A stretch of DNA of 51,664 nucleotides from Candidatus Tenderia sp. (GTDB lineage Bacteria; Pseudomonadota; Gammaproteobacteria; Tenderiales; Tenderiaceae). The notes under the pieces are model-generated. The model had not been told where the DNA came from and ran no database searches. It saw only the letters and a list, made by a program, of their open reading frames with translations. Location of the stretch: the NCBI GenBank assembly GCA_031416075.1, contig JANOSY010000093.1, positions 1 to 51,664 on the forward strand, read 5' to 3'. The position numbers and the translations under genes are program-made. This document shows, in pieces, positions 45,951-51,664 of the stretch. Each line of letters opens with the position of its first letter. The stretch's first letter is position 1.

Positions 45951-47066
45951 ATGCCAGACGCCAATAACAAACGACCTACAAATAAGATATATGGCAACCC
46001 CACTCCCCCTCCCGGCCTAGTGGACGAGCGTAGTGAACGCTGGGCATTTTTTTTATTTTTATCATTCCTATTAGTACTCTTTGGCACCGCCATATGGCTG
46101 GTATTTGGCGACCACACCGCTCCGGAACCTCCGCAACCTGAAATATCACTCTCAGGCACCGAGCAGCTCATCACCATTCATGAACCAATCCAGCCTCTGC
46201 CTTTAACCGTCAAACTCAACCCCGACAAAGTTGCGTTAGGTAAAATGCTATTTTCTGATACCCGTCTCTCTCAGGACAACACCATGGCCTGCGTCAGTTG
46301 CCACAACTTAAGTTCTGGCGGGGCAGATGGCAAACAGGTCTCAACAGGGGCAGGAGGCGCACGGGGCCAAGTTAATACATTGTCAGTATTTAACTCCGCC
46401 TACCAGATTGCCTGGTTCTGGGATGGCCGCGCCGCCACTTTAAACGAACAGATCGATGGCCCCATACACAACCCCCTGGAGATGGGGATGACATGGGACC
46501 GACTGGAAAAAAAGTTACAACAGATCACCGAATATGAGACATTCTTCAACAAAATCTATGCCGATGGGATTAACGAAGACAACATAAAAGACGCCATCGT
46601 TACCTTTGAACGATCTTTAATCACCCCTAACGCCCGTTTTGACCGTTATCTTCGCGGCGAAACAGACGCCATTAGTGAAAACGAAAAAACCGGCTACCAG
46701 CTCTTCAAAGATTACGGCTGTATTGCCTGCCACCAGGGCATGAACATCGGCGGCAATATGTTCCAGATTTTTGGTGTTGCTAAAAACTATTTTGAGAACC
46801 GGGGTAACATAACACGTGCCGATTTAGGACGTTTTAATGTCACGGGCCGGAAAGAGGACAAATATCGATTCCGGGTACCCAGTCTGCGTAACGTTGCACT
46901 CACCGCGCCCTATTTTCATGACGGCTCAAGGAACACCCTGGAACAGGCGGTACACATCATGGCCGAATATCAGCTTGGCCGCACCATCCCTGATACCGAT
47001 GTTGCACTCATTGTTAATTTTTTAAATACCTTGACCGGAGAATACCCCTACGAAGGGATAAAATGA
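45951..47066 (+). CDS. Membrane-anchored di-heme cytochrome c peroxidase/MauG family protein
   Basis: LGKMLF.D.RLS, CVSCH, FWDGRA, CIACH and FRVPSLRNVALTAPYFHDG motifs. Confidence 0.92.
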   Translation: MPDANNKRPTNKIYGNPTPPPGLVDERSERWAFFLFLSFLLVLFGTAIWLVFGDHTAPEPPQPEISLSGTEQLITIHEPIQPLPLTVKLNPDKVALGKMLFSDTRLSQDNTMACVSCHNLSSGGADGKQVSTGAGGARGQVNTLSVFNSAYQIAWFWDGRAATLNEQIDGPIHNPLEMGMTWDRLEKKLQQITEYETFFNKIYADGINEDNIKDAIVTFERSLITPNARFDRYLRGETDAISENEKTGYQLFKDYGCIACHQGMNIGGNMFQIFGVAKNYFENRGNITRADLGRFNVTGRKEDKYRFRVPSLRNVALTAPYFHDGSRNTLEQAVHIMAEYQLGRTIPDTDVALIVNFLNTLTGEYPYEGIK

Positions 47067-50028
47067 GCAGTGTATTCCGACAGATCGCCATTATCCTGGT
47101 TGCCTCAGCAGCACTGGCATTCCTCTATATTAATACTCAGGATAACCATACACAGCGATACAATCAGGTCATTGAACTCTTAGGAACAATAGAACAGACC
47201 GACGCCACCTTTAATCAGGACATTTTAAAGGTACGTTATAACCTGTTAATGCATTATGACACTCTCAAAAACGAACAGGTCAAGATGTTGGCGCTGCTCC
47301 AACAACTTCAGATCCATGAATTTAATACTCAACATCACGGCGCGGAATACAGCGACCAACATATCAATGCACTTGAGACTCTGATTAAAAATAAAATCGA
47401 CGTCGTCGAAACCTTCAAATCAAGAAATGCCATTCTAAAAAACTCCTCACGCTATCTGCCCGCAGGCGTTGAAAGCATGATTAAAAAAATGATTGAACAA
47501 AATGTCAGCACAACATTAATCAACCAGATATACGGCTTGCTCAGCAACACCTTAAGTTATAGCGTCACCGCTGATGACGCATTCAAAATGCAGGTTCTTC
47601 AGATAATAGATATCATCAATGCGAGCCGCTCACATTATCCAAATGAACTTCAGCAGACACTCGATCACTTGCTGCTACATACCCATATGATCCTTAACGA
47701 AAACCCCATCGTAGACGATCTGGTCGGGCAAGCCACCAATGCCAACATCGCCCAACAACTCAACAATCTATCAAGCAACTACAGCTACTACCACAAAATA
47801 AAAAATGACGAAAAACGTATCTACCAACGTTATCTGTACGTCTTTACACTGGCGCTATTAGGTTATATCAGCTACATCGTTTTACGCCTACGCAACAGTG
47901 CGGCAAAATTAAAACGAACCGTTACCGATCTCAACTACCAGAAATTTGCCATGGACCAACACTCCATCGTCAGCATCTCCGACGTTACCGGGGCAATCCT
48001 TTATGTAAATGACCGGCTTATAGATGTCAGCCAGTACTCACGCGATGAGCTGCAGGGAAAAAACCATAACATTCTCAGCTCTGGGCACCATTCACCAGAG
48101 TTCTTCGAGGCAATGTGGCGCACCATCTCCAACGGCAAAGTCTGGAATGGTCAGATAAAAAATCGCACTAAAAATAATAACTACTATTGGGTCGATTCCA
48201 CCATCGTTCCCTTTATGGACGAAAACAACAACCCCTATCAATACATCTCCATTCGCACCGACATTACCGAACACAAAAATCTGGAAGAGGCACTGTTCCG
48301 TGAAAAAGAGCAAGCTTTAGTTACACTACAAGCCATTGCTGATGGTGTTATCACTACCGACATACATGGCAAGATTGAGTACATCAATCCCCAGGCAGAA
48401 CATCTCACCGGCTGGGGCCATACCCAGGCAAAAGGCCTCGATCTGAGCCAGATATTTTCCATTCACGACCAGATCAACGCCACACCCATTACCAATCTGG
48501 TAGAACTCTGCCTGAAAGGTGAAAACAACCTTTTAGAACCTAACGTCATCCTCACCAACCGTCACGGTCATAACTACGCCATCGAAATTGCAATTACACC
48601 ACTGCTCAACCGTGATAACCGCGCCATCGGTGCTGTTGTTATAATGCACGATGTCACTGCTGTACGTGCGCTGGCGAGTCAGATGAACTATCAAGCCTCA
48701 CACGACGCCCTGACAGAACTGATTAATCGACGGGAATTTGAACGCCGCCTCAATCTGTTACTGGAAAGCACCCAGACATATAATTACGAACATGCACTCT
48801 GCTATCTTGACCTTGATCAATTCAAACTGGTCAATGATACCTGCGGCCACATTGCCGGTGACGAACTACTACGCCAATTAGCCACCGTGCTATCGAGCAA
48901 CATACGTGATCGCGACACACTGGCGCGGCTGGGTGGCGATGAGTTTGGAATACTGCTGGGGGAGTGCTCACTATCAAAGGCCAAAGAGATTGCTAAAAAA
49001 ATCTGTGCCATTGTTAAAGATTTTCGTTTCGTCTGGGGCGACAAGGCGTTTGAACTCGGCGTCAGCATCGGCCTGGTAGCCATTACCAAATCCAGTGAAA
49101 ACATCACCAGTGTCATGAGTGCCGCAGATACCGCATGTTATGCCGCTAAAGATAAAGGCCGCAACCGAGTACACGTCTACCATTCAGATGATAAAGAACT
49201 GCAACAGCGTTATGGTGAAATGCAGTGGGTACCCCGGTTGACTCAGGCACTCACAGACAACCGTTTCATACTCTATTGCCAGCCTATCGTACCCACCTAC
49301 GACAACGATAAAATAGGTGCCCATTACGAAGTACTATTACGAATGATGGATGAAAACAACCAGCTGGTACCGCCCGGAGCCTTTATACCCGCGGCAGAAC
49401 GCTACAACCTGATGCCAACAATAGACCGTTGGGTCATCCGTGAAACATTTTCCATCTACCGGAAATACGCCCACCACAACCCCGATATGCAACATGATAT
49501 ATGCTGCATCAATTTATCCGGCGCATCGCTCAACGATGAGCCGTTTCTGCAGTTTCTGCATGAACAGATCGACCACTGGCAGATCCCCCTGAGGTGATCT
49601 GCTTTGAAATTACCGAAACCATCGCCATCGCAAATCTTGCCAAGGCAGTACACCTCATCAAAGAGCTAAAGCGGCGCGGCTGTCGGTTTGCGCTAGACGA
49701 CTTTGGCAGCGGACTCTCCTCCTTTGCCTATCTAAAAAACCTGCCCGTCGACTATCTGAAGATAGACGGCAATTTCATCGTCGACATCGTTGACGACCCC
49801 ATCGACTTCGCCATGGTCCGCTCCATCAACGAAATCGGCCACGTCATGGGCATCAACACCATCGCCGAATATGTGGAGAACGAAAAGATAGCCACCAAAC
49901 TCCGCGAGATCGGCGTCGACTACCTGCAAGGCTACGCCATCTCCATACCACTCCCCATCAACGACTATTTACAGCAACGTCCCCTTACAAACAGAGCCAC
50001 CCAGATGAGTCTGCACGGAAAACTGTAA
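47063..50028 (+). pseudogene. Periplasmic helical sensor (DAHL-like)-PAS-PAS-GGDEF-EAL protein, frameshifted within EAL
   Basis: ORF 47063-49597 (GGDEF, RxxD I-site, EVLLR) and ORF 49594-50028 (FEITE, DDFGSG, LKID, AEYVE, QGY) join if one C is added to the C5 run at 49585-49589. Confidence 0.85.
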
Positions 50029-50614
50029 TCTCCCGCCAACAAACCACCATCACCGCCCCCTCACAATCAACGCCCAATGCAGCTACAACCCATCTGAAAA
50101 GAATTGTAAACAGTTACCGCCAGGCGCTTCTTTTTCCACCCCATCATGGTACCTTGCGGCCACTAATAATGGTGATGCAGGCAGATCCATATAAACCAAC
50201 GTCTGCGCCCATGAAAGCTTGCCAACATCAGAACATTTGAACTGAAAAACCCATACCCGATGGAAAAATATGGCACCATTAACTATAACCATAAACAAAG
50301 GGTCAGCCAGGCCAGTGATGCGTCACCTGCGGATAACAGCGAAAAACAGAGCCTCCAGGAGCACCAGATTACACCTCACCATCGAAAATTAAACTATCAT
50401 AAAGCGCAATACGGCAAGAACAAGGGGAGAGATATTGTTGTAAATACCCGCCTTCCGCAACATCAGACAGGCACATCTCCGCTCAACGTTATGCGTATTT
50501 ATTGTTCAAATTTTCAGCTACAAAAAAGGAGTGAATCGTTCAGCAACGATAACAATTGTAAAACAGGTCCGTCATTCAAAAATTAATTAGCCTAAAATTT
50601 AGCCGAGGAAAAAC

Positions 50615-51022
50615 ATGATGAGCATAATAAAAGAATTTAAAGATTTTGCAGTAAAGGGCAATGTCGTTGACATGGCCGTGGGTGTCATTATCGGTGCCGC
50701 ATTCGGTAAAATTGTCTCATCCCTGGTTGGCGATGTCATCATGCCGCCGATTGGCGTACTTTTAGGCGGCGTCGATTTTTCTAGCCTGGCATTAATCGTT
50801 AAAGAAGCCGTCGGCGAAGCTCCCGCCGTTGTCATCAGTTACGGAAAATTCATCCAGACACTGATCGATTTCACGATCATCGCATTTGCCATATTTATGG
50901 CAGTAAAGGCCATCAACTCCACCAAGAAAAAAGCAGAGGAAGCACCCGCAGCACCACCCGCACCTTCGAAAGAAGAAATGCTGCTGACAGAAATCCGCGA
51001 CCTGCTTAAAGAGAAGAAGTAG
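50615..51022 (+). CDS. mscL: Large-conductance mechanosensitive channel
   Basis: [18 protein letters not shown] and LLTEIRDLL motifs. Confidence 0.97.
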
Positions 51023-51043
51023 ATTCTCTTGATAACGTTCGAC

Positions 51044-51105
51044 ACATAACAAATGTGTCAACTCGACCCGCCAAAAGCCGCACATTTTTCTGCGCGGCTT
51101 TTGGC
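51044..51105 (+). mobile_element. Truncated attC-like site / terminator-like hairpin after mscL
   Basis: ACATAAC-AAATGT-GTCAACTCGACC followed by the 12-bp stem GCCAAAAGCCGC/GCGGCTTTTGGC; right-hand L and R boxes are missing. Confidence 0.45.
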
Positions 51106-51190
51106 AGCCAGCCATCCAATACAGAATCAGATACAGCATCGATCAACCAGATCAAGTCTCAACCACCACAGACCATACCAACCCGCTACC

Positions 51191-51382
51191 GCTTCAATGA
51201 AGCCGTAGCGTTTCGCTACAGATAACATCACCGACCAATAAATCCGGTGAAGACTTCATAACTTTTCAATGATGCCCATACCGGCACCCTAAGCTCAAAA
51301 GTGAAGCAACCAACCCTCCGTCAACCCGATCTTTTCTCAAGTATTATTTCAATCCGCTCCCACCGTTGTTGGTGGGAGTAAC
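51191..51382 (-). CRISPR. Orphan mini-array of three non-identical CRISPR-repeat-like units
   Basis: Minus strand: GTTACTCCCACCAACAACGGTGGGAGCGGATTGAAAT (51382-51346); ...GGTGCCGGTATGGGCATCATTGAAAA (ends 51263); GTTATCTGTAGCGAAACGCTACGGCTTCATTGAAGC (51226-51191). Each has a hairpin and an ATTGAA-NN 3' handle. Confidence 0.65.
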
Positions 51383-51552
51383 GCAACGGCGGATTCAACA
51401 GGTGCACCGAGAAAATCCTGCATATAGCTGATGATGCGAACGATAGTGCCACGTTTGCACTCCAAGTCTTGTTCGATGCGTGTGCGTGGCACGGGATGAC
51501 GTGCTGCGCTCAGCAGCTTGTGCAGCGCATAGATGCGATCAAATTTATCCAA
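51349..51552 (-). pseudogene. N-terminal HTH of a YafY/WYL-family regulator, truncated (WYL/WCX domains absent)
   Basis: DKFDRIYALHKLL...LECKRGTIVRII.YMQDFLGAPVE resembles WYL-regulator N-termini; TTG start at 51552; the frame stops inside the first repeat. Confidence 0.65.
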
Positions 51553-51664
51553 ACCACCCCCGTGATTCATATTTTTTGCCTACCGCCGGATAGTACCGCA
51601 CCCTATATGGCTGGTGCGCCTAATTTATTTTCAATAATCAAACAATGAATAACTAATCTGCTCT

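Follow-up and report, generated by a model that had tools for sequence, protein, structure and literature searches.

Probable leftovers of earlier CRISPR arrays at the trailer end of a type I-C CRISPR-Cas site in Candidatus Tenderia

Three repeat-like units and their families

The window, by which we mean the whole stretch of DNA analysed here, is the entire contig C93 (JANOSY010000093.1; 51,664 nucleotides), one of the 95 contigs of a 3.49-Mb Candidatus Tenderia genome (assembly GCA_031416075.1, here G000) with a completeness rating of 99.98%. The genes that flank the units described below are chromosomal and encode a MauG-like haem enzyme, a GGDEF-EAL protein and MscL. Between mscL and the contig end, three repeat-like units (A, B and C) follow one another on the minus strand. 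The original prediction, made from the letters of the window, had described three unlike units on that strand, and their order, their lengths, their stems and the 36-nt spacer between B and C are all exactly as it gave them. The features of this region are as follows:

50615..51022, plus strand: mscL (NCBIfam MscL, 220.7 bits), the conserved right-hand flank of the CRISPR site
51070..51105: hairpin I1, 15 bp, 93% complementary, between mscL and the relics
51184..51210: imperfect palindrome I2, 13 bp, 92% complementary, overlapping the 3' half of unit C and extending 7 nt past it
51226..51191, minus strand: unit C, stem GTAGCG/CGCTAC, 3' end GCTTCATTGAAGC, a nearly intact repeat of a type I-G family
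51262..51227, minus strand: relic spacer between B and C, 36 nt
51298..51263, minus strand: unit B, 3' end ATTGAAAA, a decayed repeat of the same type I-G family
51345..51299, minus strand: unique stretch of 47 nt between A and B, a probable trailer
51382..51346, minus strand: unit A, 37 nt, 8-bp stem CTCCCACC/GGTGGGAG, 3' end GGATTGAAAT

Unit B is separated from A by 47 nt and from C by 36 nt, which gives a spacing of 83 nt from A to B and of 72 nt from B to C. The three do not make up a canonical array, that is, at least three near-identical direct repeats at regular spacing; the sole array found by a periodic-repeat scan is on another contig, C69. Neither the 47 nt nor B, the spacer or C has a second copy in the G000 genome, so these elements are not dispersed repeats of the REP type.

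The array on C69 lies at the end of that contig and consists of at least 16 repeats, all identical and 37 nt long, with spacers of 32-35 nt. It closes a cassette in the order WYL regulator, cas3, cas5c, cas8c, cas7c, cas4, cas1c, cas2, leader and array; every cas gene in it passes the cut-off of an NCBIfam model, either one for type I-C or a general Cas one. The regulator at the head of the operon is 322 aa long, has WYL and WCX domains and is divergent from an aminotransferase gene. Unit A shares 36 of its 37 positions with these repeats, which follow a type I-C cas operon and its leader; the last base of A is T in place of C. The type I-C character that had been ascribed to A is borne out, and the proposed search of the genome for cas loci with a matching array led to the operon and array on C69, for A only. 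The further statement that the units lie there without cas genes holds for the window, i.e. for contig C93, and fails for the genome, which has a full I-C operon on C69. The cas-less look is due to the contig boundary, unless the junction of A with a truncated regulator described below belongs to a cas-less allele.

Among the Rfam families, the nearest to A is CRISPR-DR9 (27.9 bits, E 0.0011, under the gathering score of 45), and its hairpin folds at -15.9 kcal/mol. The 47 nt after A exceed the I-C array's spacers in length and are most plausibly a trailer. According to a review (PMC8047081), differences at the 3' end are common in terminal repeats, and arrays may collapse to one repeat. As A is changed at its last base only, and a 3' change is usual in terminal repeats, A is of the terminal-repeat type, and it is most likely a terminal-type copy of the repeat of G000's own type I-C system. 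It may instead be a relic of a separate, earlier I-C cassette or, if the population is a mixed one, part of a cas-less allele; what stands before A in this assembly is the regulator stump and not a spacer with a repeat.

Unit C is nearest to Rfam CRISPR-DR16 (19.5 bits, E 0.27, under the gathering score of 35), a family for which copies of C in the genomes G004 and G010 score 30.4 and 25.1 bits against the same gathering score. In the attempt to place the units in known families, both A and C therefore have a nearest family and both stay under its gathering threshold. Of 151 genomes of the same class searched with the DR16 model, 13 gave matches at E <=0.001 and 7 had arrays above the cut-off; among these seven, G055 and G157 are unpublished and were left out, and five public ones remain. 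Repeats of the family in six public genomes are 36-37 nt long and end in CATTGAAGC at the 3' side, the ending being GGCCTCATTGAAGC in five of the six. As the family repeats share this ending, that of C is normal for the family and not degenerate. The cas genes beside family arrays were inspected in two of the five public genomes above the cut-off: the arrays adjoin cas7g, cas3g and cas4g/cas1g in G124, and cas3g, csx17, cas7g, csb2 and cas4g/cas1g in G145. The suggested resemblance of C to type I-G repeats was correct in this sense.

Gapless identity to the repeats of G124, G101 and G145 is 28/36 for unit C, and the G004 copy of C reaches 32/36 against the G101 repeat; compared with the family repeats in the same gapless way, A has 15-18/36 and B 15-17/36. 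Against five family repeats, C is the top 36-mer of the whole 3.49-Mb genome, with a runner-up at 24/36. An alignment of the six real repeats, three C-type relics (from G000, G004 and G010) and B supports a 7-bp stem, in which 95.7% of the 70 cells pair, a value that 0 of 500 shuffles reach, and in which three of the seven pairs change on both sides. Unit C has the sequence and the hairpin that are common to repeats flanking type I-G cas genes, and on this footing it is assigned to the type I-G repeat family (Rfam CRISPR-DR16 type).

For unit B, the case is made by the 3' end. The last 12 nt match those of C at 11 positions and lie exactly 72 nt upstream of them; a 12-mer match of this quality occurs at 14 of 6,979,766 genome positions, and 1.6e-5 would be expected in an 8-nt register window. 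Set into the family register, B retains five of the seven stem pairs (read by eye from its alignment row), and it keeps the 3' handle core ATTGAA. The motif in register and the remaining stem pairs together argue that B is a decayed repeat of C's family, with its 3' motif kept and its stem weakened. Both B and the spacer, the latter at 34 of 36 positions, are also present in G004. Type I-G cas genes were absent from G000 in a tblastn search with five I-G proteins of G145, the sole matches being the cas4 and cas1 genes of the I-C operon, with 33-35% identity; tblastn found no I-E or I-F cas genes in G000 either.

The CRISPR-Cas site in related genomes

In G001, a genome of the same genus, the aminotransferase gene and mscL are adjacent, about 250 nt apart. 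In G000, the aminotransferase gene lies on C69 beside the regulator, and mscL lies in the window beside unit C. The adjacency in the one genome and the split of the two genes in the other indicate that C69 and C93 end on opposite sides of one site. CRISPR-like units at E <=1 were found neither in the empty site of G001 nor near mscL in G007 and G035.

Other genomes have other occupants. The aminotransferase of G003 is 99.7% identical to that of G000, and its regulator only 87%; this genome has a type I-E operon with 70 I-E repeats. About 65 nt after the last, degenerate I-E repeat, G003 carries an exact 26-nt fragment of unit A, and in a scan of contigs of species genomes, the first 26 nt of A were found on this G003 contig only. 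In G004, one contig ends in the aminotransferase gene, the regulator, I-E-like cas genes and an I-E array. Another G004 contig has a piece of the G003-type I-E repeat (19/21; score 17 versus a shuffle maximum of 13), followed after about 300 nt by B, spacer, C, hairpin and mscL at 94% identity to the window, the homology beginning at 51304, 6 nt before B. In G010, from another genus, the regulator is followed by a type I-F operon with an array of 51 repeats; about 1.1 kb past the I-F repeats stands a solitary C-type unit with its own compensated stem, and then a 23/27 piece of an I-E repeat. G002 and G005 have I-F genes behind the same WYL regulator. The I-F cassettes of G002, G005 and G010 may belong to this site, to judge by the regulator that leads them. 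Rfam flagged neither the I-E repeats nor the I-E relics at E <=1, and the latter were identified by local alignment with shuffle controls.

The site is consequently empty in G001, occupied by type I-C in G000 and by type I-E in G003 and G004, and relics of a foreign subtype lie at the trailer ends in G003, G004 and G010, each order being read within one contig. Stacked relics of successive CRISPR systems at one hotspot had been one of the two interpretations offered by the original prediction, and the comparison of occupants and the trailer-end relics in three relatives speak for it.

Together, these data suggest a model in which the stretch forms the trailer end of a CRISPR-Cas site on the chromosome and holds leftovers of earlier occupants beside a live I-C system, and we consider this reading probably correct. 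The working I-C cassette of C69 would, as judged from the gene order, have the aminotransferase gene on one side and the A-B-C end of the window on the other, and the assembly, in which the two contigs are not joined, would have split a working CRISPR-Cas locus over C69 and C93. Unit B, the 36-nt spacer and unit C would be what remains of an older type I-G array after the loss of its cas genes, namely its last two repeats and the spacer between them. Whole cassettes of WYL regulator, cas genes and array would be gained, lost and replaced at the one site by recombination; repeats at the trailer end would survive as replacement and deletion stop short of them, and would decay afterwards. The units most likely do not represent a novel RNA device but genomic fossils of an ordinary, known kind: they are a new example of a known feature type, and no new mechanism is demonstrated.

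A bolder version of this model would have cassettes of at least four type I subtypes (I-C, I-E, I-F and, as a relic, I-G) exchanged as units at one docking site, each exchange leaving behind the last repeat of the previous array, with the trailer as a layered record. We hold this stronger claim to be improbable.

Precedents for the preferred reading, i.e. worn array ends beside a current cassette, exist in enterobacteria. In the parts of the literature cited here, cas loci of Escherichia and Salmonella are described as having moved repeatedly into the same place, and arrays are proposed to outlive their cas genes (PMC2886076); a related case is that of the orphan I-F arrays of E. coli (PMC8616872). 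Shared with these cases are the single site that holds varying cassettes or none and the repeats that outlive cas genes. The present site differs from these cases, as far as the cited parts describe them, in that a stack of relics from as many as three repeat families lies behind the current array, and in that I-C, I-E and I-F cassettes occur within one family, each starting with an orthologous WYL regulator. In an anti-cas orphan array (E. coli CRISPR4 type), a relic spacer would match cas genes of the lost subtype; the relic spacer here has no anti-cas match in the two I-G loci compared.

A truncated regulator and its junction with unit A

Beyond unit A, the window ends with parts of a second WYL-type regulator gene, on the minus strand:

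51383..51392, minus strand: junction segment, 10 unassigned nt between the last regulator-homologous base and A
51393..51570, minus strand: WYL2 fragment, the 5' remnant of a second WYL-type regulator gene, with codons 1-59 complete and only the first base of codon 60
51349..51570, minus strand: open frame of 73 aa, made up of 59 aa of HTH and 14 aa from the junction and unit A
51571..51664, minus strand: region upstream of the regulator fragment, homologous to the upstream region of the full C69 regulator and reaching the contig end

The fragment is 83% identical (44/53 aa) to the N-terminus, i.e. the HTH part, of the 322-aa regulator on C69, and the remainder of the second gene is absent from the whole assembly. 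The stop codon of the 73-aa frame falls within the GATTGAAAT end of the repeat; the frame matches Pfam HTH_11 at E 0.0035, which is sub-threshold. The junction is the scar of a lost cassette, at which a deletion joined codon 60 of the second regulator to the repeat; this deletion would have removed the remaining regulator, the cas operon, the leader and the array.

A search of metagenome contigs gave 0 matches each for the regulator/A junction and the spacer/C boundary. The junction was checked on Logan contigs from four metagenome runs of four studies (X1, X3, X5 and X7). Two contigs, X3 record 3 (893 nt) and X5 record 8 (2421 nt), span positions 51382/51383 free of gaps. In X1, the sequence equals the window over 50600-51382 with 0 differences in 783 nt, and A then runs into the last 30 nt of the C69 leader; X1 has no cover of 51392-51664, although gaps in contig cover prove nothing. 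A second X3 contig has the same leader-repeat link with one difference, and X3 as a whole holds the junction, the intact regulator and the leader-repeat contig together. In X7, a spacer-like sequence stands before A, and the regulator homologue is intact past 51393, reading YDSKANGWYY like the C69 regulator. Three natural states are found before the repeat: a leader (a collapsed array or a short-word assembly path), a spacer and the regulator stump. The Logan contigs of these runs were presumably built with words shorter than the 37-nt repeat; if so, the junction of regulator and repeat is proven by them and the identity of the repeat is not.

The regulator part of the X3 contig differs from G000 at about 10% of positions (20 in about 195 nt, 51383-51577) and the rest of the contig at about 1.4%. 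Between the X3 and G000 stumps there are 11 synonymous and 6 non-synonymous codon changes. The X3 stump equals the allele that is intact in X7, and X5 has six of the same differences in the part that it covers. This divergence of the X3 and X5 stumps is not predicted by a single inherited scar, and it may stem from mis-phased short-word contigs, gene conversion or recurrent truncation. Integration of a circular cassette by one crossover in the 5' region of the regulator was considered and rejected, the C69 regulator having the X3/X7-type allele at only 4 of the 20 variant positions.

It is possible, if doubtful, that the scar marks a cas-less allele: some cells would have lost the whole I-C cassette and kept the aminotransferase gene, the stump, A, B, C and mscL, and the C69 cassette would come from other cells. 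A junction between codon 60 and a repeat is the expected remnant of an internal deletion from the regulator through cas genes and leader into the array. The leader before A and the absent stump cover in X1 point the same way, as do the three contigs found side by side in X3 and the fact that the end of C93 and the start of C69 are both dead ends of the assembly graph. However, not one 21-mer from the final 200 nt of C93 recurs on C69 or on another contig, so that no merge into a shared aminotransferase region is seen, the hole in the contig cover of X1 carries no weight, and the stacked order of current cassette and then relics is read in G003, G004 and G010 on one contig each.

Still less likely, and in our estimate quite improbable, is an assembly artefact at the junction, in which case A would just be the final repeat of the array on C69. 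Exactly 282 nt lie beyond A; this length, double the 141 nt by which G000 contig ends overlap, is the one to be expected of a minimal surviving assembly tip, and in X1 and X7 leader or spacer-like sequence stands before A. On the other hand, the gap-free contigs of X3 and X5 come from two other studies, and the 141-nt overlaps (134 of 190 contig ends have a terminal 25-mer in common with another contig) imply that the assembly words exceeded the 37-nt repeat in length, which favours a true link between the stump, A and the 47 nt.

With regard to worn trailer ends, which we continue to prefer as the explanation of the stretch, the closest parallel is that of polymorphic terminal repeats and stable trailer ends, as treated in the cited passages of PMC8047081. 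Unit A resembles them in being altered only at its 3' last base and in its leader-distal position, with the older, decayed B and C beyond it; here, unlike in the cases cited from that source, a truncated regulator stands before A and the units beyond it come from another subtype. The breaks lie at the 5' edges of repeats and within the first 60 codons of the regulator, and the same junction occurs in two other studies, which could speak for a directed process and not random deletion. Candidates could be recombination anchored on the 5' region of the regulator, a long-range deletion by Cas3 or an aberrant integrase reaction. The 73-aa frame, which is HTH-only and has its own upstream region, could encode a sensor-less competitor of the full regulator. 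Both ideas, the directed process and the competitor, go with the bolder version of the model and are likewise improbable.

Tests for function

The other interpretation of the original prediction was a locus of crRNA mimics, either RNA anti-CRISPRs or guides of the CreA/CreR type, and comparisons of the spacers with cas promoters and with phage and plasmid databases had been proposed as tests. Neither comparison yielded a target. With seeds of 10 or 12 nt in which every sixth position was disregarded, neither spacer has a PAM-proximal match in positions 1-11500 of C69 or in the window end. The best matches in the whole genome, 23/36 for the 36-nt and 27/47 for the 47-nt sequence, are at chance level. 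A blastn search with 119 nt comprising both spacers and B had 0 matches in 50,697 phage and 72,556 plasmid records. Over 310 kb of loci from other genomes, including the two I-G cas loci of G124 and G145, the only match of the relic spacer above chance was its orthologous copy in G004. Promoter-like sites numbered 0 in 50900-51664 (a weak test), and the one terminator-like site lies inside mscL; these results are no better than those of shuffles.

According to the part of a preprint cited here (bioRxiv 10.1101/2024.10.29.618823), CreR and CreA RNAs typically lie upstream of cas genes, have pseudo-spacers of mostly 23-27 nt and show at least about 9 PAM-proximal matches to the promoter of a cas or toxin gene. 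It is very unlikely that the stretch is a regulatory mini-array of this kind, in which B-spacer-C, or A with the 47 nt, would pair in part with a promoter, direct the I-C complex to it and repress cas or toxin genes. The layout does agree with what such an RNA needs, namely a degenerate repeat, a spacer and a repeat with intact hairpin, B retains its ATTGAA handle core, and the block is conserved at 94% in G004. This last figure, however, describes a single G004 match that runs from B to mscL (query 361-1065) and by itself indicates no extra constraint. More directly, the seed search found no promoter match, and the genome-wide best matches are those expected by chance; B and C are repeats of the I-G type, the wrong subtype for a genome whose Cas proteins are only I-C; and the block lies past the array's trailer end, neither upstream of the cas operon nor within it, with a full-length spacer of 36 nt and a stretch of 47 nt in place of the lengths described in the preprint.

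For the RNA anti-CRISPRs, the passages cited from PMC10651486 define solitary repeat units as lying on viruses and plasmids with no full or partial repeat within 100 bp; most of those described match the subtype of their host, and the published finder discards cases with a nearby repeat as arrays or mini-arrays. The least credible reading of all is that solitary repeats from a mobile element soak up Cas proteins of several subtypes here: A does match the host's own subtype and has, as the solitary units described there do, the hairpin of the host repeat, and mutually unlike units would be skipped by array finders, but the units stand less than 100 nt apart and adjoin the host's own CRISPR site, their flanks are chromosomal and not those of a virus, prophage or plasmid, the 119-nt query is without phage or plasmid match, no promoter-like site was seen in a scan that is a weak test, similar relics lie at the array trailer ends of G003, G004 and G010, and no inhibitory role is indicated.

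The absence of targets and of I-G genes leads us to infer that the relics, as worn ends of former arrays, are without sign of any function. The most they might do is to offer Cas5c, in read-through transcripts, a cleavage site at A. The proposal of a crRNA-mimic locus found no support in these comparisons, given the lack of a mobile context, a seed match or a phage or plasmid match and the position at a trailer end.

What looks on one contig like a chimeric, cas-less mini-array can be the worn end of an ordinary locus that was split by assembly, which is a caution for scans that seek RNA anti-CRISPRs or regulatory mini-arrays. The site is also a clear natural example of the turnover of CRISPR-Cas cassettes at a fixed place, and its relics could help to order past gains and losses of immune systems within the lineage.

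Two smaller features accompany the relics. Hairpin I1 is terminator-like in look, is without a call in the terminator scan and is kept in both G004 and G001. Palindrome I2 competes with the repeat hairpin when the extended unit C is folded.

WYL regulators and cas cassettes

Within one family, orthologous WYL+WCX regulators that are 60-87% identical stand at the head of cas operons of three subtypes.

Locations of the WYL+WCX regulator orthologues
C69:8962-9930, in G000, the genome of the window (C69 is the contig with its type I-C cas operon)
L013:2639-3607, locus from a related genome
L015:10190-11155, locus from a related genome
L020, L036 and L037, further loci from related genomes

Subtype behind the regulator
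I-C: G000
I-E: related genomes G003 and G004
I-F: related genomes G002, G005 and G010

The regulators of G000 and G003 are only 87% identical, whereas the aminotransferases next to them are 99.7% identical. The regulator seems to move together with the cas cassette.

The regulator fragment and the contig ends

The 5' stump of a second WYL-regulator gene lies just upstream of unit A, the relic I-C-type repeat. Sequences of public metagenome runs were compared over window 51383-51577. In run X3 the gene is likewise truncated, and this fragment carries the same set of variants as the intact gene of run X7, a set that amounts to 6 non-synonymous and 11 synonymous codon changes relative to the window. 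Six of these variants are present in run X5, within the stretch that its contig covers. The adjoining part from A to mscL shows much less difference than the fragment does.

The contig beyond unit A (window 51383-51664) is exactly 282 nt long, which is twice the 141-nt overlap between contig ends of this assembly. In the assembly graph this window end is a dead end, as is the start of C69. C69 stops 36 nt past the 16th repeat of its array (C69:1-36), and if the final spacer has the 34-nt length of the adjacent ones, the two terminal bases (GT) would be the start of a 17th repeat, which would put the contig break right at a repeat start.

Further features of the window and of other sequences

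Two further features were located in the window.
51184-51210, imperfect 13-bp palindrome that covers part of unit C (a relic repeat of the I-G family), in its 3' half, and reaches 7 nt past it
47063-50028, plus strand, split PAS-GGDEF-EAL signalling gene (frames 47063-49597 and 49594-50028)

When unit C is folded in extended form, the palindrome outcompetes the repeat hairpin. The two signalling frames overlap by 4 nt and jointly match successive parts (513-975, then 979-1105) of one diguanylate cyclase/phosphodiesterase model; the split could reflect a frameshift, a pseudogene or a sequencing error.

Outside the window, a periodic-repeat scan detected a 72-bp unit repeated five times in tandem on another G000 contig (C85:28773-29132), which was rejected as a CRISPR array because it has no unique spacers. 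At L019:1780-2100, a locus of G010, the stretch that separates the I-F array's end from the solitary C-type unit contains two small frames, both on the opposite strand.
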